From Malacoraja senta (taxonomy: Eukaryota): a stretch of 64,000 nt of DNA. Where the stretch lies: the NCBI GenBank assembly GCA_038087875.1, contig CM075990.1, positions 15,378,001-15,442,000 on the forward strand, given 5' to 3'. The notes beneath the pieces were generated by a model. It had not been told where the DNA came from and did no database searches. It worked only from the letters and a program-made list of their open reading frames with translations. The translations under genes were made by a program, and so were the position numbers. Below, one piece after another: positions 13,835 to 51,063 of this stretch; within the stretch, counting starts at the first letter, position 1; the number at the start of each line of letters is the position of its first letter.

Positions 13835-13902
13835 CTGAAGGACAGGCACAATGATGTTTTTCAAAGTAGGGTGTTCGCGTGTGCAACTTACAACCCAGGG
13901 GT

Positions 13903-14063
13903 GTTCAAGAAGGAACTGCATATGCTGGAGAAGGAAATAGGCAACGTTTCGGGCCGAAACCCTTCTTCAGACTGAACAAAGGTTTCGGCCCGAAACGTTG
14001 CCTATTTCCTTCGCTCCATAGATGCTGCCACACCCGCTGAGTTTCTCCAGCAATTTTGTCTAC
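13903..14063. mobile_element. Palindromic (head-to-head) Penelope pLTR unit with TSD
   Basis: Two inverted hammerhead-bearing arms centred on ttcag-a-ctgaa; flanking direct repeat cttacaacccaggggt at 13887-13902 and 14064-14079. Confidence 0.85.
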
Positions 14064-14066
14064 CTT

Positions 14067-14466
14067 ACAACCCAGGGGTATGAATATTGATATCCCTAGC
14101 TTCAAGTGACCCTTGCTTTCCCTTTCAATCCATCTCTTCCCCCATCCTGGTTCTCTGACCAGTCTGACTGTCCTCCTGATTAAATATTATCTTTGTATGC
14201 TTCGGTGTCACCTTCCCCTAGCTGACAATGATCTATTCTACTCTTTCCTTGAACTGCCTCCCCTTTGATATCCCTTTATCACGCCTTACCCTTCCATGTC
14301 TCTGTGTCTCCCTCTCTCCTGACTCTCGGTCTGAAGAAGGGACTCCGTGTCTCCCTCTCCCCTGACTCTCGGTCTGAAAAAACCCCCCAAAATAAATAAA
14401 GGGTCTTGACCCGAAACGTCACCCATTCCTTCTATCCAGAGTTACTCCAGAATTTTGTGTCCATCT
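14067..14466 (+). mobile_element. Penelope-like 3' remnant
   Basis: End of the endonuclease frame (LQPRGMNID), pyrimidine-rich UTR and pLTR gggtcttgacccgaaacgtcaccc. Confidence 0.7.
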
Positions 14467-15279: not shown

Positions 15280-15571
15280 GGCGGCACGGTGGTGCAGCAT
15301 AGAGCTGCTGTCTTACAGCGCCAGAGACCCAGGTCTGATCCTGACCCCAGGTGCCGTCTGTATGTACTACCTGTGACCGCATGGGGTTTACCCTTGTGAT
15401 TCAGTTCCCCCACACACTCCAAAGACGTATACGTTTATAGGTTAATTGGCTTCAGTAAAGATTGTAAATTTTCACTAGTACAGAGGATAGTGCCAATGTA
15501 CAGCGATCACTGGTCTGCATGGACTCGGTGGGCAGAAGGGCCTATTTCCGCTCTGTATCACCAAACTGAAC
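15280..15571 (+). mobile_element. HE1-type V-SINE
   Basis: tRNA-like head ggcacggtggtgcagc...gatcctgac, V domain cccacacactccaaagac, CR1-like tail gggcagaagggcct. Confidence 0.85.
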
Positions 15572-15580
15572 TAAACTCAA

Positions 15581-17146
15581 CTTCTCCCCAAAATCCACAA
15601 ACCTGACTGTCCCGGTAGACCCATTGTCTCTGCCTGTTCGTGCCCCACCGAACTCATCTCCACCTACCTCGACTCCATACTATCCCCCTTGGTTAAATCC
15701 CTCCCCACCTATGTTCAAGACACCTCAGACACTCTCCGTCATCTCCGCGCATTCCACTCTCTAGGCCCTCACCCCCTCATCTTCACCATGGACGTCCAGT
15801 CACTGTACACCTCCATTCCCCACCAGGATGGTCTCAAAGCCCTCCGTTTTTTCCTCGACCGGAGAAGCAATCTATACCCGGCCACTGACACCCTCCTCCG
15901 CCTAGCGGAGCTGGTACTTACACTTAATAACTTTTCATTCGACTCCTCCCATTTCCTCCAAATACAAGGCGTAGCTATGGGCACACGCATGGGCCCCAGC
16001 TACGCCTGCCTCTTTGTCGGGTACGTAGAACAATCCCTGTTCAATGCGTACCAGGGCCCCATCCCCGACCTCTACCTCCGCTACATCGATGATTGTTTTG
16101 GTGCCACATCCTGCACCCACACACAACTGACTGACTTCATCCGCTTCACCACCAACTTCCATCCGGCACTTAAATACACCTGGACCATTTCCGACACTTC
16201 CCTACCATTCCTTGACCTCACTATCTCCATCGCAGGTGATAGACTCCTTACCGACATCCACTACAAACCTACCGACTCCCATGGCTATCTGGACTACACT
16301 TCTTCCCACCCTGCTTCCTGTAAGGACTCCATCCCCCACTCCCAATTCCTCCGTCTACGCCGCATCTGCTCCCAGGATGAGGCGTTCCACACCAGGGCAT
16401 CTGAAATGTCCTCATTCTTCAGGGAACGGGGGTTCCCCTCCTCCACCATAGATGAGGCTCGCACCAGGGTCTCTGCCATACCCCGCAACACTGCTCTCTC
16501 TCCCCATCCCCCCACTCACAACAAAGGCAGAGTCCCCCTAGTCCTCACCTTTCACCCCACCAGCCGTCACATACAACAAGTGATCCTCCGTCAGTTTCGC
16601 CACCTCCAACGTGACCCCACCACTCGCCACATCTTCCCATCTCCCCCTATGTCTGCCTTCCGCAAAGACCGCTCCCTCCGTAACTCCCTTGTCAATTCTT
16701 CCCTTCCCTCCCATACCACCCCCTCCCCTGGTACTTTCCCTTGCAACCGCAAGAGATGCAACACTTGTCCCTTCACTTCCCCCCTCCACTCCATTCCAGG
16801 ACCCAAGCAGTCGTTCCAGGTGCGACAGAGGTTCACCTGCATCTCCTCCAACCTCATCTACTGCATTCGCTGCTCTAGATGCCAGCTGATCTACATCGGT
16901 GAGACCAAGCGGAGGCTTGGCGATCGTTTCGCCGAACACCTCCGGTCGGTCCGCAATAACCAACCTGAACTCCCGGTGGCTCAGCACTTCAACTCCCCCT
17001 CCCATTCCGTATCTGACCTCTCTGTCCTGGGTCTCCTCCATGGCCACAGCGAGCAACACCGTAAATTGGAGGAAATGCACCTCATATTCCGCTTGGGCAG
17101 TCTACACCCTGGTGGCCTGAACGTTGAATTCTCCCAATTCTGCTAG
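15581..17146 (+). CDS. Penelope RT / GIY-YIG endonuclease ORF (N-terminally truncated)
   Basis: Frame open from LLPKIHKPDCPGRPIVS; MDVQSLYT, GVAMGTRMGPSYA, YLRYIDD, FLDL; Cys linker CNRKRCNTC; LIYCIRCSRCQLIYIGET...RFAEH...HF...GLN. Confidence 0.93.
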   Translation, partial: LLPKIHKPDCPGRPIVSACSCPTELISTYLDSILSPLVKSLPTYVQDTSDTLRHLRAFHSLGPHPLIFTMDVQSLYTSIPHQDGLKALRFFLDRRSNLYPATDTLLRLAELVLTLNNFSFDSSHFLQIQGVAMGTRMGPSYACLFVGYVEQSLFNAYQGPIPDLYLRYIDDCFGATSCTHTQLTDFIRFTTNFHPALKYTWTISDTSLPFLDLTISIAGDRLLTDIHYKPTDSHGYLDYTSSHPASCKDSIPHSQFLRLRRICSQDEAFHTRASEMSSFFRERGFPSSTIDEARTRVSAIPRNTALSPHPPTHNKGRVPLVLTFHPTSRHIQQVILRQFRHLQRDPTTRHIFPSPPMSAFRKDRSLRNSLVNSSLPSHTTPSPGTFPCNRKRCNTCPFTSPLHSIPGPKQSFQVRQRFTCISSNLIYCIRCSRCQLIYIGETKRRLGDRFAEHLRSVRNNQPELPVAQHFNSPSHSVSDLSVLGLLHGHSEQHRKLEEMHLIFRLGSLHPGGLNVEFSQFC

Positions 17147-17262
17147 CCCTGGCTGTCCCCTCCCCTTCATCAGCCATCTGGTTGTCTCCTCCCCTCCCCC
17201 AACCCTCGGGCTCCTCCTCCTCCTTTTCCTTTTTTCCTTTCTTCTCCCCACCCCCTATCAGT

Positions 17263-17291
17263 CTGAAGAAGGGTTTCGGCCCGAAACGTTA
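17263..17291 (+). ncRNA. Minimal type I hammerhead ribozyme motif in the Penelope pLTR
   Basis: CTGAAGA-A-[GGGT TTCG GCCC]-GAAA-CGTT: conserved core, stem II with UUCG loop, palindromic stem III; stem I is very short. Confidence 0.7.
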
Positions 17292-18671
17292 CCTATTTCC
17301 TTCGCTCCATAGATGCTGCTGCACCCGCTGAGTTTCTCCAGCATTTTTGTGTACCTTAAACTCAACTACAAATGGGCAGTCAATAGTTGGTGCCCAACAA
17401 GGGCCTTTTTCCACACTATAACCCTCCATGACTCTTTATAACACTAGAATATGACAGTGATCCCTCATTGAACAATATTGGAGTTACTGATGAGCTTATT
17501 TGCTTTGTCACTGATTGTAAAATATTGGCCATTGTATATTGGTCACAGTTTTATCAAATAAGTGCACCCATTTCTAACACCACACGTTTGCAGTTCTGGG
17601 CTTGCTTATTATGGACCTGTACAGTAACTATAGAAGCACACGACTTCAATACAGAATACCTGACTCTTTGAAAGGAAATCAAAAATCAAAAAATACAGCT
17701 GCCACTCAGTAGGAGGCCATTTGGCCCATTATATCTGTGCTAGTCTCTACCAGAACAGGTCTCTATATATATTCAACCCTGTGAATTCTGTAGGAAGGAA
17801 GCTGGTTCACGCAGAAGACAGACACAACATGCTGGAGTAACTCAGTGGGACAGGCAGCATCTCTGGATGGAAGGAATGGGTGACGTTTTGGGTCTTGCAT
17901 GCTTTCCTCCACCATATATTTATCCACATTCCTTTTGAAGGCTGGAATGCAATCCGTCTCCACCACACGGTGAACAGAACAATTGTTTATCCATCATTTA
18001 TTTTTACAATTAAGTAACTAAGCCGACTTGATTGTCTTTTATGTTAAAATAACAGTTAATGTTATATGCTTTTCAGAAAAATAGCACTGAAGAAGTGAAT
18101 GGCTCTGTAGTATTTTCTGAGATTGCCATGTTATATCAGTTGGCAGTTTCTGCTGGTCCAACTGTTGTAAACTGGGACTATAATTTCTCACCTCTTTATC
18201 CCCCCGTGGGGTAGAGAGGCCTCTTAAATCTATCACTGCATTTGGATGCTCACACTTATGAACAGCTCAGCTATAATTCTGCACAAGCTGTCTCAGACAG
18301 CTGTTATTTTCATCAAAAAGCAACAAAAAAAAACATTTTTGCATGGGCTCCAGCACCAGCGGAATGAAATAAAGAATGGCACTGTGACAAACAATATATA
18401 GACATTTATGTCATTGCTTTCTTTAGGTATAAACAGACCTGTAAAATTGCACTGCAATAGTGCAGGTGCTGGCTGTCCCATCTGGTAAAGTAAAATCTTG
18501 AAAATGATAGCCGGGATGACCAGTCTTCTCAAAGCCTAATAAATACTTGTCATCCTGATGCACAGCGTAGAGTTAGAGGTCACGAGTATTTATTTGTCAC
18601 GTGTACTGGATATGAACCCGAACAAAGAAATCCATACATGCTGCAGCTTTGCAGCCCATGAGGCGCAACGA

Positions 18672-21894: not shown

Positions 21895-22090
21895 TGTCGG
21901 AAGGAACTGCAGACGCTGGTTTAAACCAAAGATACACAAAAAGCTGGAGTAACTCAGCAGGAAAGGCAGCATCTCTGGTCGAGACCCTTCTTTGGACTGT
22001 CTGTAGAAGGGTCTCGACACCGAAAATGTCACCCATTCCTTCACTCCAGAGATGCTGCCTGTCCCGCGAAGTTACTCCAGCTTGTTGTGT
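21895..22090. mobile_element. Head-to-head pair of Penelope pLTR-derived units
   Basis: Minus arm (aaggaactgcag...gagacccttc) joined to a plus arm (gaagggtctcgacaccgaaaatgtcaccc...gttactccagc). Confidence 0.75.
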
Positions 22091-22244
22091 AAACAAAATG
22101 ATGTTGCTATGTAGTGATGGTTTTGCATTTTAAATGGTATGGTCACCGAGTAGACAGGCAACGCATAAAACTGAACTAATAATCCAGATACTCGAGTTCA
22201 AATCCCAGCAAGGGAACTGGATTTCAATTCATTTAATAGGTACA

Positions 22245-22530: not shown

Positions 22531-22559
22531 CAATAATCCAGCATTAAAAAATAGCCGGT

Positions 22560-22654
22560 AGACAAAAATGCTGGAGAAACTCAGCGGGTGAGGCAGCATC
22601 TATGGAAATAGGCAACGTTTTGGGTCGAAACCCTTCTTCAGACTGATGGATAGC
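22560..22654 (-). mobile_element. Solo Penelope pLTR unit with TSD
   Basis: Flanked by ttaaaaaatagc(c/t)ggt at 22544-22559 and 22655-22670. Confidence 0.8.
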
Positions 22655-22940: not shown

Positions 22941-25140
22941 ATAGAAACAAAAAGCTGGAGTAACTCAGCGGGACAGGCAGCATCTCTGGAGAGAAGGAAT
23001 GGGTGACGTGTCGGGTCGAGACCCTTCTTCAGACTGAAAGTCCCGGGAAAGGGAAACGGGAGATATGGACGGTGAAGTAGAGAGATATAGAACAAATTAA
23101 TGAAAGTTATGCCAAAAAGTAACGCTGATAAAGGAAACAGGCCCTTGTTAGCAGTTTGTCAGGTGGAAATGAGAAACTGGTACGACTTGGGTGGGGGAGG
23201 GATAGAGAGAGAGGGAATGCTGGGATTACTTGAAGTTAGAGCAATCAATATTCATACCACTGGGCTGTCAGCTGCCCAAGCGAAATATCAGATGCTGTTC
23301 CTCCAATTTGCATTTAACCTCACTCTGATAATGGAGGAGACCTAGGACAGAAAGGTCTGTGGGAATGGGAAGGAGAATTAAAGTGTTTAGCAACCGGGAG
23401 ATCAGGTAGGTCCAGGCGGACTGTTCAGCGAAACGATCGCCCAGTCTACGTTTGGTCTCGCTGATGTATAACAGTCTGCATCTTGAACAACAAGTACAGT
23501 AGATGAGTTTGGAGGAGGTGCCAGAGAACCTCTGCCTAACCTGAAAGGACTGTCGGGGTCCCTGGACAGAGTCGAGGGAGGAGGTATAGGGACAGGTGTT
23601 GCATCTCCTGCGGCTGCAGGGGAAGGTACCTGGAGAGGGGGTGGTTTGGGTGGGAAGGGATGAGTTAACCAAGGAGTTGCGGAACATTCTCTGTGGAAAG
23701 CAGAAAGGGGTGAGAGATGGGAAGATGTGGCTAGTTGTGGGATCCCATTGGAGGTGGCAAAAATGGGATCTGGGGGTCCTTGTACATCAGTCTATGAAAG
23801 TAAGCATGCAGGTACAGCAGGCAGTGAAGAAAGCGAATGGCATGTTGGCCTTTATAACAAGAGGAATCGAATATAGGAGCAAAGAGATCCTTCTGCAGTT
23901 GTACAGAGCCCTAGAGAGACCACACCTGGAGTTTTGGTCCCCTAATTTGAGGAAGGACATTCTTGCTATTGAGGGAGTGCAGCATAGGTTTACAAGATTA
24001 ATTCCCAGGATGGCTGGACTGTCATATGCTGAGAGAATGGAGCAGCTGGACTTGTACACTCTGGAGTTTAGAAGGATGAAAGGAGATCTCATTGAAACAT
24101 ATAAGATTGTTAAGGGCTTGGACACGCTAGAGGCAGGAAACATGTTCCCGATGTTGGGGGAGACCAGAACCAGGGGCCACAGTTTAAGGATAAGGAGTAA
24201 GCCATTTAGAACGGAGACGAGGAAACGCTTTTTCTCACAGAGAGTGGTGTGTCTGTGGAATTCTCTGCCTCAGAGGGCGGTGGAGGCTGGTTCTCTGGAT
24301 GCTTTCAAGAGAGAGCTAGATAGGGCTCTAAAAAATAGCGGAGTCAGGGGATATGGGAGGAAGGCAGGAACGGGGTACTGATTGGGGATGATCAGCAATG
24401 ATCACATTGAATGGCGGCTCGAAGGGCCAAATGGCCTACTCCTGCACATATTGTCTGTTGTCTAATTGGGAGTAGGGGATTTTCCCCAATGGGCTTTTCC
24501 CATTGAGATTAGGGAAGATTCAAACAAGGGGACATGACTTGAGAATTAAGGGACAGAAGTTTAGGGGTAACATTAGGGGGAACTTCTTTACTCAGAGAGT
24601 GGTAGCTGTGTGGAAGGAGCTTCCAGTGGATGTGATAGAGGAGGTTCGATTTTATCCTTTAAAAATAGATTGGATGGGTATATGGACGGGAAAGGAATGG
24701 AGGGTTATGGTCTGAGTGCAGGTAGATGGGACTAGAGGGAAGAAAGTAGGAAGAAAAAAAAAAGTGTTCGGCACGGACTTGAAGGGCCGAGATGGCCTGT
24801 TTCCGTGCTGTAAATGGTTATATGGTTATATGGTTATATGGGATAAAGTATTTGCAAGAAGCAGGGTGGGAAGAGGTGTAGTCGAGATAGTTGTGGGAGT
24901 CAGTGGGTTCGTAATAGATGTTAGTTGTTAGTCTATCTCCTGTGATGGAGATTGTGAGATCAAGAAAGGGGAGTGAGGTGTCGGAGATGGTCCAAGTGAA
25001 TTTGAGTGCAGGATGAAAATTGGTGATGAAATTAATGAAGTCCATGAGTTCTGCATGGGTGCAGGATGTAGCACAGATGTAGTCGTCAATGTAATGGAGA
25101 TAGAGTTCGGGGATAGGGCCAGTGTATGCCTGGAACATGG
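22941..25140 (-). mobile_element. Decayed Penelope-like element interrupted by two CR1 fragments
   Basis: RT piece (YLHYIDD, FLDL) at 24840-25138 and GIY-YIG piece at 23268-23760; TSD tgctttccttaaa at 22928-22940 and 25141-25153. Confidence 0.9.
23765..24840 (+). mobile_element. Two nested CR1 LINE 3' fragments
   Basis: DLGVLVHQSMKVSMQVQQAVKKANGML...WNSLPQRAVEA; second fragment RGHDLRIKG with (TATATGGT)n tail. Confidence 0.92.
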
Positions 25141-25948
25141 TGCTTTCCTTAAACCCACAGCAGTTTTAAATATCCAGGAAGTTAATAGACATTTTATGGA
25201 CTATTCACCTACCACTTTCTTCTGCATTGGATGCAAATTTAAATAGTCCACTGTGTGTTTTCTGAAAGTAAATCTTTATTGAGAGCCTCACACATCTGTT
25301 CAGCTCAAAAGAATCAAAAGTGAGCTTTATTTCTTCATTTCAGATAGAACACCATTGCAAATATTTATACTTGTTTCATTTTAAAGGGAAAAAACGTCAT
25401 AGTTTTCGTGCCTAAGGTTTACAATACAATTAACAGCTTGGCTATAAATTCAGTAATGCTTTTAAACCATTCCTTCTGCCAAACACCTCTTAAATAGCTA
25501 ATAAAAGTGAGACACTAACAGGACTTGTTCTCCAACTACACCATCCACTTGAAGTCAATAAATGTCCAATTTTTTCCTCCACTTTAATCCCCACCACTGT
25601 CCATAGATCCATCCTCGAATTTCAAAGGTTATGAATAAATGCAACTCTTCATTAAATGTTTCATAGTCATACAGCACAGAACAAGGTGCTTCAGCCAAAC
25701 TCATCCATGTTGAATGTAAAACCCCAATGCCCATGTTTGGCCTACATCCCTCATCTAGTTTTTATTTTTTATTTTATCGATAAAAACAATTACATAGAAC
25801 TTAATTTTCAGCACTACACATAGTGATGGTGTAACATTATTATAAATTAATCTAATGTTTGGTTATTACAGGTTAATCTTATATAGGAAGCAAGTTTATC
25901 TAAATCTATAAAATGGAACGTAATGACAACAAACTGCAAATGCTAGTT

Positions 25949-26138
25949 AGACCAAAGTGCTGGAGAAACTCAGCGGGTGCGGCAGCATCTTTGGAGTGAA
26001 GGTAATAGGCAACGTTTCGGGCCGAAACCCTTCTTCAGGCCCGCAAAAGTTGCCTATTTCCTTCGCTCCAATAGATGCTGCCGCACCCGCTGAGATTCTC
26101 CAGCACTTTGATTTTCCAGCATCTGCAGTTCCTTCTTG
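25949..26138. mobile_element. Palindromic Penelope pLTR unit with TSD
   Basis: About 65-bp inverted arms with an intact minus-strand hammerhead core (26011-26038); flanking repeat aactgcaaatgctagtt at 25932-25948 and 26139-26155. Confidence 0.85.
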
Positions 26139-26490: not shown

Positions 26491-27035
26491 AACTGATACG
26501 ACAGACAAAGCATCAGAGTTCCACCTTATTAAACACACTGAAGCAGATGTGTTAGGAGCAGGATGACGTTTTGGGTCGAGACCCTTCTTCTCGACCGAAA
26601 CATCACCCATTCCTTCTCTCCAGGGATTCTGCCTGACCTGCTGGGTTACTCCAGCATTTTGTGTCTACCTTCGATTTAAAACCAGCATCTGCAGTTCTTT
26701 CCTACGCATGTTAGGAGCAGGAGTTGTCCTTATGGCCTTTCGAGCTGCTCTGCCGTTTAGAACAACCATAGCTGATCCCTTGTTTCAACACAAAATTCTT
26801 GTTCTCACCTTGCACCCCCATGAAGCCTTCAGTAAGAAGAAATCTGCCCATCTCTTTCTCATTTGTTCGCAGTGACATGGCCTCCACCCTGCTCTGTGGT
26901 TGAGAATTCCACAGGCTTACCTCCAAAGCATAAATAAATCACTCTCCTCATCTCCAGTTCAAGTGTCCTGTCCTTTATCCTGAGACAATGACCTGTGGTT
27001 TTAGATCCCCTCACATGGGAAGGTGTTCACCCTAC

Positions 27036-41000: not shown

Positions 41001-42397
41001 TGCATCATTGTGCTCCAGTCATGTTCTGTATAGGCCAATGATGGGGACTTCAGTGGAGGCTGGTAAGGATACTTCAACACTCGATCCTGTGGTCACTATG
41101 CTATTGCAGCAAACTCCGTGGACATGTTAGGTGTTGCAGATTGATTTGGCCTGCTGTCTGGAAAAACTGTCAAACACTACCTATCTTGAAAAGACATGGC
41201 CCCTCTTGGCACCAGCTGCAAACAGCAAATACTTCTATATGGGATCAACCTGCAACTTATTATGGAACACAAGCTGTTTCTCCTTAGATGCTCTTAGATT
41301 CTGCCATTTCCTACTTCCTACTTCATTGTGATATTGAAATCTGATCTTTTCAATATGTACGACATTCCAATTTTAAATATTCAGATCTAACATAACAAAG
41401 GGCTTGGCTCCACTAATAAAGGAGTTATATCAAAATCCTTCCATCATCTATAGGCAAAGCACTGGTATTCTCAACGCATCTCACCTCTTCCCTATTAAAG
41501 CAGACGTTAGATATTTCTTTGACCAGGCGTTGGTTCCATATTATAATCTCTCTAGCTCTGTAGCATATTTTGTTTGTGATTCTCCCTTGAGGTATCTTGG
41601 AAGCTTACACTAAAAGCATTATATTCATCCATTTTAGTTGCTCTGATCTGCTCAGTGGCCTTTGGTCTACATCAGTTGATGTTGCTTGTGGTTACAATTG
41701 CTGCACTACTTTTGGCAATGGTACGCATTAACCAATTCTGGTTTGGATTTTGCTTAGTCCAGAACATTTGTACATGCTTGCGTTCTAGTCTAAAATATTT
41801 TGCTGTTAAGAATTGCATTTACTGTCAGATGTTGTCTTAGCAATGCTTCTTCATCATCTCTCTATCACTTACATTAAATGTTTTTGTTTGTGTGTAGGAA
41901 GGATCTGCAGATGCTGGTTACACACCGAAGATAGACACAAAATGCTGGAGTAACTCAGCGGGACGGGCAGCATCTCTGGATGATGTTTCTGGTCTGCAGA
42001 AGGGTCTCGACCCCAAACATCACCCATTCCTTTTCTCCAAAGATGCCACCTGACCCGCTGAGTTACTCCAAATGTTTTTTTTGTCAATTGTTAAGTTCCT
42101 AATTTTGCCTAATGCTACTAATTTTCCTTTCTGAGAAGGATCCCAGTCTTGAAACTTTAATCGTTTTCTCTCTCTGCCTGGCCTGCTGTATTTTTTTTAA
42201 AGCGATTTCTGTTTCTCCTTCAGATTTTTCCTGTGCATTAAGCCAAACAATAATTTTCCACATTTACAGATGTGAAATCCAGATCTCCTGTTAAATCTTA
42301 CGCCTCATTGATTTCAGAATCTTGCTTTGTGAGTCCATTCATGCCCATGGTTTATCTACCTCTGTGGCAGATGTGACTATTGATTCAGATGGGCAAA

Positions 42398-43080
42398 ACA
42401 GGTACAGCAGGCAGTGAAGAAAGCGAATGGCATGTTGGCCTTTATAACAAGAGGAGTCGAGTATAGGAGCAAAGAGGTCCTTCTGCAGTTGTACAGGGCC
42501 CTAGTGAGATCACACCTGGAGTATTGTGTGCAGTTTTGGTCCCCTAATTTGAGGAAGGACATTCTTGCTATTGAGGGAGCGCAGCGTAGGTTTACAAGGT
42601 TAATTCCCGGGATGGCGGGACTGTCATATGCTGAGAGAATGGAGCGGCTGGGCTTGTACACTCTGGAGTTTAGAAGGATAAGAGGGGATCTTATTGAAAC
42701 ATATAAGATTGTTAAGGGTTTGGACACGCTAGAGGCAGGAAACATGTTCCCGATGTTGGGGGAGTACAGAACCAGGTGCCACAGTTTAAGAATAAGGGGT
42801 AAGCCATTTAGAACGGAGACGAGGAAACACTTTTTCTCACAGAGGGTTGTGAGTCTGTGGAATTCTCTGCCTCAGAGGGCGGTGGAGGCTGGTTCTCTGG
42901 ATACTTTCAAGAGGGAGCTAGATAGGGCTCTTAAAGATAGCGGAGTCAGGGGATATGGGGAGAAGGCAGGATCGGGGTACTGATTGTGGATGATCAGCCA
43001 TGATCACATTGAATGGCGGTGCTGGCTCAAAGGGCCCAATGGCCTACTCCTGCACCTATTGTCTATTGTCTATTGTCTAT
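42398..43080 (+). mobile_element. CR1 LINE 3' fragment with open ORF2 C-terminus
   Basis: 189-aa frame KKANGMLAFITRG...[11 protein letters not shown]...WNSLPQ; (TATTGTC)n tail; very similar to 23810-24460. Confidence 0.95.
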
Positions 43081-44873: not shown

Positions 44874-45092
44874 CTGTAATAAGTGGGTGGGATCTACCAG
44901 TGGTTGAGAGACCATAGAGCTGATTTTAAATGGAGCTCTCAATCCTTTGACTAAGATTATCAGTGCTACAGATGGATGGATAACGTACATGACTTGGTCA
45001 CCATACATTTGGAGACTTTGTTTGACTAATTAACCTCCAAATTACTTTAGATACCCCCCCCCCACCTGAACACACAATCGCACAGAGAGAGA

Positions 45093-45714
<622 letters not shown>

Positions 45715-45795
45715 AACAGACTCAGATAGAAAATTCCAAGGTGCAAAGTCTTCGGGAAAAGTCTCAACACAAAAAGTTGGCAGATGCAAGTTCAC

Positions 45796-46002
45796 CTTCA
45801 TCCTTGTTTCATGTTTGGACCTCAACACCACACGATAGTAGAGCTGAATGGTCCGAGCAGAATCCAAACTAAGTACCAGTACGCAGGTGAATATGTTGTC
45901 TTTGAGCACAATGTTGACCACCATTTTGTTGATGATTGAGAGCAGGCTGTTGGCACAGTAGCTCGTTGGATCAGACTTCCCTTGGATAGGATATGCGTGA
46001 GC
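45796..46002 (-). CDS. Candidate internal coding exon (207 nt, phase 0 to 0)
   Basis: Acceptor ctttctggtttgtgtctgaccag, donor AAG|gtgaac; the other two frames are closed; coding-like codon usage. AHAYPIQGKSDPTSYCANSLLSIINKMVVNIVLKDNIFTCVLVLSLDSARTIQLYYRVVLRSKHETRMK. Confidence 0.55.
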
Positions 46003-49560: not shown

Positions 49561-49961
49561 TGAAGACAAAGGGTCAGATTGCCTGGGTAGCAGAGTGCAG
49601 AGAGGGTTGGATAACACAAAATATCCAGTCATAAAGGCGTCAACATTATGGAGTCATAAAGCTTATAAATGGGCCCTTCAGCCCATCATGTCCATGCAAG
49701 CACATGTCTGGCACCAACCGCTAATACGCCAGAAAATCTGGAAGAGTTACAAAGATGTGGGAGGAAAGTTAATAGCGAAATTAGGAAAGCCCAAAGAAAG
49801 AAATGAAAGCAAATATTGCCAAGTTAAATTAAAGAAGACCCAGAGATGTTTTCTCAGTACATAAAGATAAGAGGTTAATGAAGGAATGTGGGGGCTATTG
49901 TTGAATAAAAAGATCACCTCCTCTGACAGCTCATTCCAAATACCTCCCACCCTCTGAGCGC

Positions 49962-51063
49962 ACATTTCCTTACCATTTCTTGACCTCACTATCTCCATCG
50001 CAGGTGATAGGACTACTGACCAACATCCAATATAAACCCACTGACTCCCATGGCTATCTGGACTACACTTCTTCCCACCCTGCTTCCTGTAAGGACTCTA
50101 TCCCCTACTCCCAATTCCTCATCCTATGCCGCATCTGCACCCAGGATGAGGTATTCCACACCAGGGCATCGGAGATGTCCTCATTCTTCAGGGGGGGGGT
50201 TCCCCTCTTCGACTATAGATAAGGCTCTCACCACGGTCTTTTCTATACCCCGTGACTCTGCTCTCACTCCCCATCCCCCCCACTCGTAACAAGGGCAGAG
50301 TCCCCCTTGTCCTCGCCTTCCACCCTACCAGCCGTCACATACAACAAATAACCCTCCGACATTTTCGCACACCTCCAACGTGATCCCACCACTTGCCACA
50401 TCTTCCCATCTCCTCCCCTGTCTGCTTTCCGCAGAGACCGCTCCCTCCGTAACTCCCTGGTCAATTCGTCCCTTCCCACCTGTACCACCCCCTCTCCGGG
50501 CACTTTCCCTTGCAACCGCAAGAAATGCTACACTTGTCGCTTTACCTCCCCCCTTGACTCCATTCAAGGACCCAAGCAGTCTTTCCAGGTGCGGCAGAGG
50601 TTCACCTGCACCTCCTCCAACCGCATCTATTGCATCCGCTGCTCTAGATGTCAGCTGATCTACATCGGTGAGACCAAGCGTAGGCTTGGCGATCGCTTGT
50701 GGCTCAGCACTTCAACTCCCCCTCCCATTCCGAATCCGACCTTTCTGTCCTGGACCTCCTCCATGGCCAGAGTGAGGACCACTGTAAATTGGAGGAGCAG
50801 CACCTCATATTTTGCTTGTGCAGTTTGCACCCCAGTGGTATGAACATTGACTTCTCTAATTTTAGGTAGTCCCTACTTTCCCCTCCCCTTCTCAGCTCTC
50901 CCTCAGCCCACACATCCACCTCTTCCTTTGTTCTTCTGGGCCCCCCCACCCCCCCACCCTCACATCAATCTGAAGAAGGGTTTCGACCCGAAACTTTGCC
51001 TATTTCCTTCGCTCCATAGATGCTGCCTCACCCGCTGAGTTTCTCCAGCATTTTTGTCTACCT
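49962..51063 (+). mobile_element. Decayed Penelope-like element with pLTR
   Basis: Frameshifted homolog of 16195-17357; YIGETKRRLGDR; ctgaagaagggtttcgacccgaaac. Confidence 0.92.

Follow-up and report, generated by a model that had tools for sequence, protein, structure and literature searches.

The window analysed here, a stretch of 64,000 nucleotides of skate (Malacoraja senta) DNA, contains a 5'-truncated, TSD-flanked Penelope-like element (PLE) at 15583-17357 on the forward strand, with a hammerhead motif in its 3' repeat. An 11-bp target-site duplication (TSD) encloses the element, the left copy (15572..15582) matching the right copy (17357..17367) exactly, and 15583-17357 is therefore regarded as a single 5'-truncated insertion. 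The motif is preceded by an open frame of 523 codons with similarity to reverse transcriptase (RT) and GIY-YIG endonuclease. Its ORF part (15583..17146, +) corresponds to the last 520 aa of the 1212-1238 aa ORF of full-length copies and comprises RT, a CX4C-CXXC linker and a GIY-YIG endonuclease. The Pfam matches to RVT_1 (E 1.7e-6) and GIY-YIG (E 5.7e-4) each fall slightly below the curated cut-off, and a PDB sequence search with the full ORF as query returned nothing at E 1. The linker reads CNRKRCNTC in the translation, in accordance with the CX2-5CxxC definition in PMC8557442. Judged by the sequence of this linker, the element, an EN+ PLE, would be of the Neptune/Nematis type.

Downstream of the ORF lie, all on the forward strand, a pyrimidine-rich 3' UTR (17147..17257), in which copies rarely begin (6/100 in -140..-17), an initiator-like TCAGTCT (17258..17264) that coincides with the 5'-end hot spot of short copies and with the putative RNA start at 17259/17260 (-4/-3), the predicted minimal type I hammerhead motif (17261..17292), and the remaining pLTR (17293..17357) up to the first 3'-end class (+94/+95), the putative RT start site 1. 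Throughout, +1 denotes the C of CTGAAGA at window position 17263 and -1 denotes 17262, so that the predicted cut falls between +28 and +29. The pLTR of this copy, which ends at 17357, is devoid of the 35-nt tail. The whole element sits in the tail of another LINE, whose tails and RT fragments are found at 15505-15582, 23590-24381 and 42384-42983 (the last without a Pfam match), and which we take to be CR1/L2-like. The window also includes a long CA/TG microsatellite (45047-45872) and 200 N.

To describe complete copies, 20 loci picked for long open frames were fetched. Eleven of them were partial tandems, in which a hammerhead-bearing pLTR is joined upstream to the ORF start. In full-length partial tandems the order is core, 95 nt, 35-nt tail, 33 nt, ATG and an ORF of 1212-1238 aa, whose N-terminal region contains a proline-rich repeat of variable number (L054:2330-6043, L051:2461-6096; 1238 or 1212 aa). 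The start codon is embedded in AAG|GTATGC (L055:2330-2338), which resembles a splice donor; PLEs often carry an intron in the 5' UTR. The family has a single ORF with RT and C-terminal GIY-YIG (Pfam just under the curated cut-offs), pLTR partial tandems, inverted 5' copies, a 35-nt tail and TSDs. The EN+ elements Neptune and Nematis (PMC8557442, PMC3846280, PMC2377424) are described with the same features, namely RT, a CX2-5CxxC linker and C-terminal GIY-YIG, partial tandems, an inverted 5' copy, a 30-40 bp tail on one end, TSDs and an initiator-like motif in the pLTR. Unlike these, the skate insertions are mostly stubs of 100-135 bp whose 5' boundary is sharp, and a tail on one side only is almost obligatory (33/35).

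A hammerhead in a Penelope pLTR is a known, published arrangement. As the initial annotation had it, the motif follows the RT/GIY-YIG ORF; it lies 116 nt past the stop of the frame, with CTGAAGA at 17263-17269, an extra A at 17270, stem II at 17271-17282 and GAAA at 17283-17286. It is made up of a 2-bp stem I, the core, the extra A, a 4-bp stem II with UUCG loop, GAAA, and a palindromic stem III without loop (ACGT, 17286-17289), followed by the predicted cut after GUU, between 17290 and 17291. The CUGANGA and GAAA core, the UH triplet, the extra nucleotide and the palindromic stem III are all present, and the annotation as a minimal type I hammerhead with an extra nucleotide after the core agrees with the description in PMC4209133. 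Among the metazoan PLE hammerheads of that paper, those of Schistosoma have a stem II of 7-8 bp compared to 4 bp in the skate; the youngest skate subfamily differs further in having U17. For minimal hammerheads of PLEs, PMC4209133 reports no activity as monomers and low activity as dimers. An Rfam scan gave no hammerhead match even at E 10, only chance miRNA-type hairpin matches on inverted pairs, and no other hammerhead family was found among 123 descriptor matches in 1.13 Mb.

Recurrence of the motif across the window, put at about 20 copies by the initial annotation, is real, and all 17 other positions it gave fall on a copy. A profile built from 7 window copies detected 33 copies in the window and none in five shuffled sequences and the reversed window. 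The fully intact motif occurs in only 3 of these 33 (17263 on the + strand, 13970 and 26038 on the - strand), compared to 0.02 per window expected from shuffles. In the 1.94-Gb genome an exact 33-nt hammerhead word matched 9,789 times, an exact 31-nt word from the 3' part of the young subfamily 22,839 times and a word of the older subfamily 9,193 times; controls gave 0 for each word. With more than 20,000 copies by exact-word count, the repeat is among the commonest short repeats of the genome. Of 25,245 candidates for protein matches 150 were scored, and since all 150 were listed at 100% identity over 239 aa, the family is considered young.

Window copies are of several kinds. A second ORF-linked copy (49961..51063, +) is 82% identical and has a TSD of ~10 bp; another (22947..23783, -), 70% identical, belongs to the older GUC subfamily and has an RT piece at 24840-25140. 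A typical short copy starting at the hot spot, with a direct repeat on both sides, lies at 22557..22647 (-). Five insertions are head-to-head inverted pairs with one tailed arm. In the pair at 13903..14067 only the left arm is tailed (TSD at least 12 bp), and in that at 25948..26138 only the right arm (16-bp TSD). The other three, with approximate ends, belong to the older subfamily: 26560..26705 (right arm tailed, TSD ~14 bp), 21895..22091 and 41890..42081 (both with the left arm tailed). Judged by eye, the pair at 13903-14067 seems to have inserted near the end of the ORF in an older copy of Penelope (~13880-14460), whose 3' UTR and pLTR follow at 14080-14460.

The ends of short copies were determined in the first 100 listed of the 22,839 matches to the 3'-part word, of which 2 are cut by an edge and 2 look duplicated; flanks come mostly from the first listed places, on contigs C1-C2. 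Because the copies were picked by a word in their 3' part, their 5' ends are unselected in this sample. Twenty copies extend beyond -141, 6 begin in -140..-17, 6 in -16..-6, 31 in -5..+1, 25 in +2..+16, 1 in +17..+27, 6 in +28..+33 and 5 in +34..+62. The stop rate per nucleotide is 0.082 at -5..+1 compared to 0.003 in -140..-6 and +17..+62 (~30-fold). A filter for truncated copies gave 3,760 matches, and about 58 of the first 100 begin at -3/-2 by hand count. A pile-up of 5' ends at the cut site is not evident in the same sample, five of the 6 starts at +28..+33 stemming from three inverted events. The 3' ends of the 100 copies fall near +94 (63 copies) or near +130 (35 copies). Loose ends at the same place were also found in contigs of three other organisms (X4, X6, X21), although such contigs do not reveal starts, strand, expression or circles, and drops in depth along them were left out of the evidence.

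Of 141 non-inverted copies, 72 are bordered by a direct repeat of 7-21 bp, although the shortest of these repeats may be due to chance. TSDs adjoin the starts or are set off from them by a few additional bases, in many cases pieces of the motif copied a second time. Each of the five most frequent haplotypes is present in ORF-linked as well as in short copies, and haplotypes confined to short copies are rare (at most 4 copies each). Given their own TSDs, the haplotypes common to ORF-linked copies and the starts upstream of the cut, we take each short copy to be an insertion of its own, made from uncut RNA of autonomous subfamilies. A splice acceptor at -2 (pyrimidine tract and CAG) was considered as the origin of the boundary and rejected, because TSDs abut the starts and no common upstream exon was found in 94 junctions.

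Where the template RNA begins was inferred from chimeric copies. A word joining tail and 5' UTR matched 389 times; 59 loci were fetched from the first 100 matches and 60 first units scored. In 29 junctions sequence from the ORF start leads back into the element; 9 of these junctions land at -4/-3 and one at -1, in most cases behind poly(A) or an A-rich stretch. Filtering the whole genome for poly(A) returned 14 matches, of which 8 carry a G; true junctions of element RNA make up 7 of the 14. Wherever a 3' end of element RNA is joined to -4/-3, a G stands directly before the joined sequence in 12/16 cases (p 4e-5), and in 7/7 of the junctions with distinct end points. An untemplated G is a signature of reverse transcription across a cap. 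Initiators follow the consensus YYANWYY, by which we take TCAGTCT at 17258..17264 to be initiator-like. In D. virilis Penelope the promoter lies inside the pLTR (PMC2377424). Together with this promoter and with TCAGTCT, the G-bearing junctions point to a capped RNA starting at -4/-3, just before the core. Ordinary short copies gave no clear sign of a cap G; the excess of G that they show at -3 stems mostly from re-priming on a GT microhomology. At one locus (L382) priming took place in the 5' repeat, and the copy then runs on into polyadenylated RNA from the middle of the ORF, all within one 13-bp TSD. Poly(A) also recurs at ~+284, about 120 nt into the ORF (L303, L309, L322, L336, L386, L390-L392); AATAAA is absent from the vicinity and first appears at +584. 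A short leader transcript polyadenylated at ~+284 seems to be a common template, even if several of these chimeras may share one ancestor. Near-full-length copies usually pass -3 on the second pass, stopping there in 2/14 and 0/11 cases. This is left unexplained by plain linear run-off, and because the second pass mostly runs beyond -3, long copies would need repeated jumps, circles or multi-unit RNA.

Head-to-head inverted pairs were found 36 times, or 35 after removal of a duplicate (L094). Exactly one arm is tailed in 33/35, so that one end lies near +94 and the other near +130, and two tailed arms were never seen in one pair (p 2e-8). Direct repeats of 9-17 bp lie on either side of 30/36 pairs. 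The two arms agree in their alleles in 24/26, 34/35 and 27/29 cases compared to 15, 23 and 17 expected, and differ by 3.1% compared to 5.3% with shuffled partners (minimum 4.0% in 2,000). The 5' ends of the two arms correlate as well (rho 0.69, 24 pairs). These data are most simply read together if each strand is primed once, the two at different sites of a single RNA. A one-sided tail has been described qualitatively and explained by self-priming or endonuclease trimming (PMC3846280, PMC8557442), and in the Anolis Poseidon element PAc two internal RT starts bound the tail, both strands being extended and uncut RNA being used in vitro (PMC11167929). The skate element would share these properties with PAc but has a different geometry, since the PAc ORF begins within the hammerhead and the skate ORF 162 nt after the core start. 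For PAc, no difference in start site between strands is reported in bulk, and coupling per event is not among the results given in PMC11167929. Twin priming in Penelope was not found by title or abstract in the literature searched, most subscription journals lying outside it.

Inverted copies could alternatively arise by fold-back or self-priming, for which an antisense template could serve (PMC3846280), and endonuclease trimming would then leave the tail on one side only (PMC8557442). Fold-back synthesis likewise yields identical arms, and it agrees with arms of the same alleles and similar lengths and with junctions that often lie in near-palindromes. However, +93..+99, where the shorter arm ends, is also the most frequent 3' end among ordinary copies, and the longer arm extends to ~+130; both ends fit the two-start geometry of another PLE in vitro (PMC11167929), and neither arm is consistently the longer on the 5' side (12, 14, 7 ties). 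Hence we consider fold-back unlikely and favour priming of each strand on one RNA. The 5' hot spot itself might be a structural stop similar to the template boundary of telomerase, caused on long or circular templates by a protein-bound fold which pairing of the tail with the core would close. In the predicted minimum-energy fold -2..+10 pairs with +118..+128, which would bring both hot spots to one helix; copies often re-prime some bases back, and the second pass seldom halts at -3. On the other side, this fold is ordinary (z -1.17, 3% of the ensemble), and a structural stop explains neither the junctions of poly(A), G and start nor the correlation between the 5' ends of paired arms that start elsewhere. 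It appears quite improbable to us compared with a capped RNA start at -4/-3.

The initial annotation had considered the short copies a non-autonomous, retrozyme-like family. On this reading, units would be cut out by the hammerhead, circularised and re-inserted, and retrozymes derived from PLEs have been proposed (bioRxiv 10.64898/2026.07.22.740005). True tandem arrays with intact motifs do occur: perfect arrays of 384 bp x13 (12/12 units intact), 275 bp x10 (7/9) and 254 bp x3 fit the working definition of that preprint, and a further array is 219 bp x2. A complete hammerhead in each tandem unit is found only in the rare arrays L344, L310 and L307. Two more perfect arrays, 138 bp x11 (L343, G000:C1:27817317-27818729, ending at the +130 site) and 165 bp x4 (L324), are joined at +29 or +28/29, where the cut is predicted; a joint of +89 to +29 is present in contigs of two other runs, and 2/4 direct junctions landing downstream of +1 are at the cut site. 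These cut-site arrays hint at cleaved, circular or repeatedly jumped templates (a circle model is summarised in PMC6765202). However, the units of both are devoid of the catalytic core, and at L343 the junction is bordered by a 4-nt repeat. The word marking array junctions matches 389 times against 22,839 copies, making arrays a small minority, and the bulk of short copies has neither tandem units with a complete hammerhead nor a lineage independent of the autonomous element, as their top five haplotypes also occur in ORF-linked copies. The dispersed copies are single or inverted insertions with their own TSDs that span the cut site, and their 5' ends are concentrated 3-4 nt before the core, at -3 and not at +29. 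Starts over +25..+37 (1,353 matches) are spread roughly evenly, and the count at +29 versus +33 (401 versus 219, ~1.2 expected by estimate) is inflated by internal deletions (7/30 inspected) and shrinks without them. With the non-LTR retrozymes (PMC7229834; bioRxiv 10.64898/2026.07.22.740005) the skate family shares a few arrays of 219-384 bp pLTR-derived units with intact motifs, but its motif is minimal rather than canonical. A retrozyme origin of the short copies is thus very unlikely, and we retain independent insertion from uncut RNA.

Separate from these are arrays of 66-bp units, which span +21..+86 of an older subfamily and lack CTGAAGA and stem II. They were seen at L033:546-815, L110, L139, L281-L290 and L345-L350 (G000 C1, ~2.7-3.4 Mb) with 1-27 junctions, often behind a first unit starting near the -3 boundary. 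The 66-bp junction has 14,839 exact matches, the first 100 all inside 0.7 Mb of C1. This array family may be a real non-autonomous derivative that lacks the full ribozyme.

Whether the hammerhead is still maintained as a ribozyme was addressed by comparing 574 copies in four clusters, some of them 10-20% diverged, over 92 columns, of which 19 change. Between subfamilies the core changed in 0/11 columns compared to 19/81 of the others (p 0.066). For core and paired positions together the numbers are 0/21 and 19/71 (p 0.004 with four clusters), a difference that is lost in a six-cluster run owing to a deletion cluster; the motif also overlaps the putative promoter. Within dead copies, core (5.6%) and flank (5.8%) decay alike, as expected. 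Stem II keeps its pairing across subfamilies, in agreement with the initial annotation, but through a one-sided change (U-A to U.G) and without compensatory change; no two-sided covariation between subfamilies was found. Loop variants such as CTTG, which the initial annotation listed across subfamilies, or CTCA are products of CpG decay. In the youngest subfamily (2% diverged versus 10% for the older class) four hammerhead positions differ from the older ones and all are predicted to weaken the fold, through GUC to GUU, two wobble pairs and a rival 6-bp hairpin that buries GAAA. The predicted probability of stem II is 0.04 in the isolated motif and ~0.01 in context. These predictions, together with a core that by itself shows no significant extra conservation, would agree with a vestige that is kept through its overlap with the promoter and a protein-binding leader. 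Against this, core and paired positions are unchanged across the four clusters, GUU is listed as a cleavable triplet (PMC3138052), stem II is predicted to be unformed in context in all subfamilies, so that the older ones misfold likewise, the Anolis ribozyme cuts only with protein (PMC11167929), and the arrays starting at +29 come from the young subfamily. We therefore regard a mere vestige as rather doubtful, and prefer a hammerhead that would cut rarely.

In summary, the motif is a hammerhead-shaped leader in the terminal repeat of a young PLE of very high copy number, and the short copies are likely run-off cDNAs of this leader and no family of their own. According to this model, a capped RNA would begin at -4/-3, and RT would prime internally at +94 or +130 from nicked target DNA. 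After 100-135 nt RT would usually reach the 5' end and run off, and the resulting stub would be integrated; alternatively RT may jump to the RNA 3' end and continue, giving rise to chimeras and probably to ORF-bearing copies and partial tandems. Use of both nicks, with +94 as the priming site for one strand, +130 for the other and a single RNA as their common template, would result in head-to-head pairs of which one end alone is tailed. Cleavage by the hammerhead would be infrequent and depend on dimers or on assistance from protein, leaving most templates uncut. In vitro, internal priming at two sites and the use of both strands and of uncut RNA are described for the Anolis element (PMC11167929).

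Regeneration of the pLTR, the one-sided tail and the role of the ribozyme are stated to be open in PMC2377424, PMC3846280 and PMC11167929. More than 20,000 near-identical insertions and intact full-length copies constitute a dense insertion record that makes the Penelope copying cycle testable, with the sharp predictions of an RNA start at -4/-3, priming at +94/+130 on opposite strands and jumps from the cap to the 3' end. Calling such motifs "retrozymes" by count would lead to a large overcount. It is conceivable, though we put it forward only tentatively, that the genome has kept the whole copying cycle: reverse transcription would begin in every case in the capped 5' leader, at two sites, each serving one target strand on a common RNA; the strong-stop cDNA would be integrated or transferred to the RNA 3' end in a retrovirus-like manner, regenerating the pLTR and partial tandems; and occasional hammerhead cuts would lead to circles, perfect rolling-circle arrays and the birth of retrozymes.
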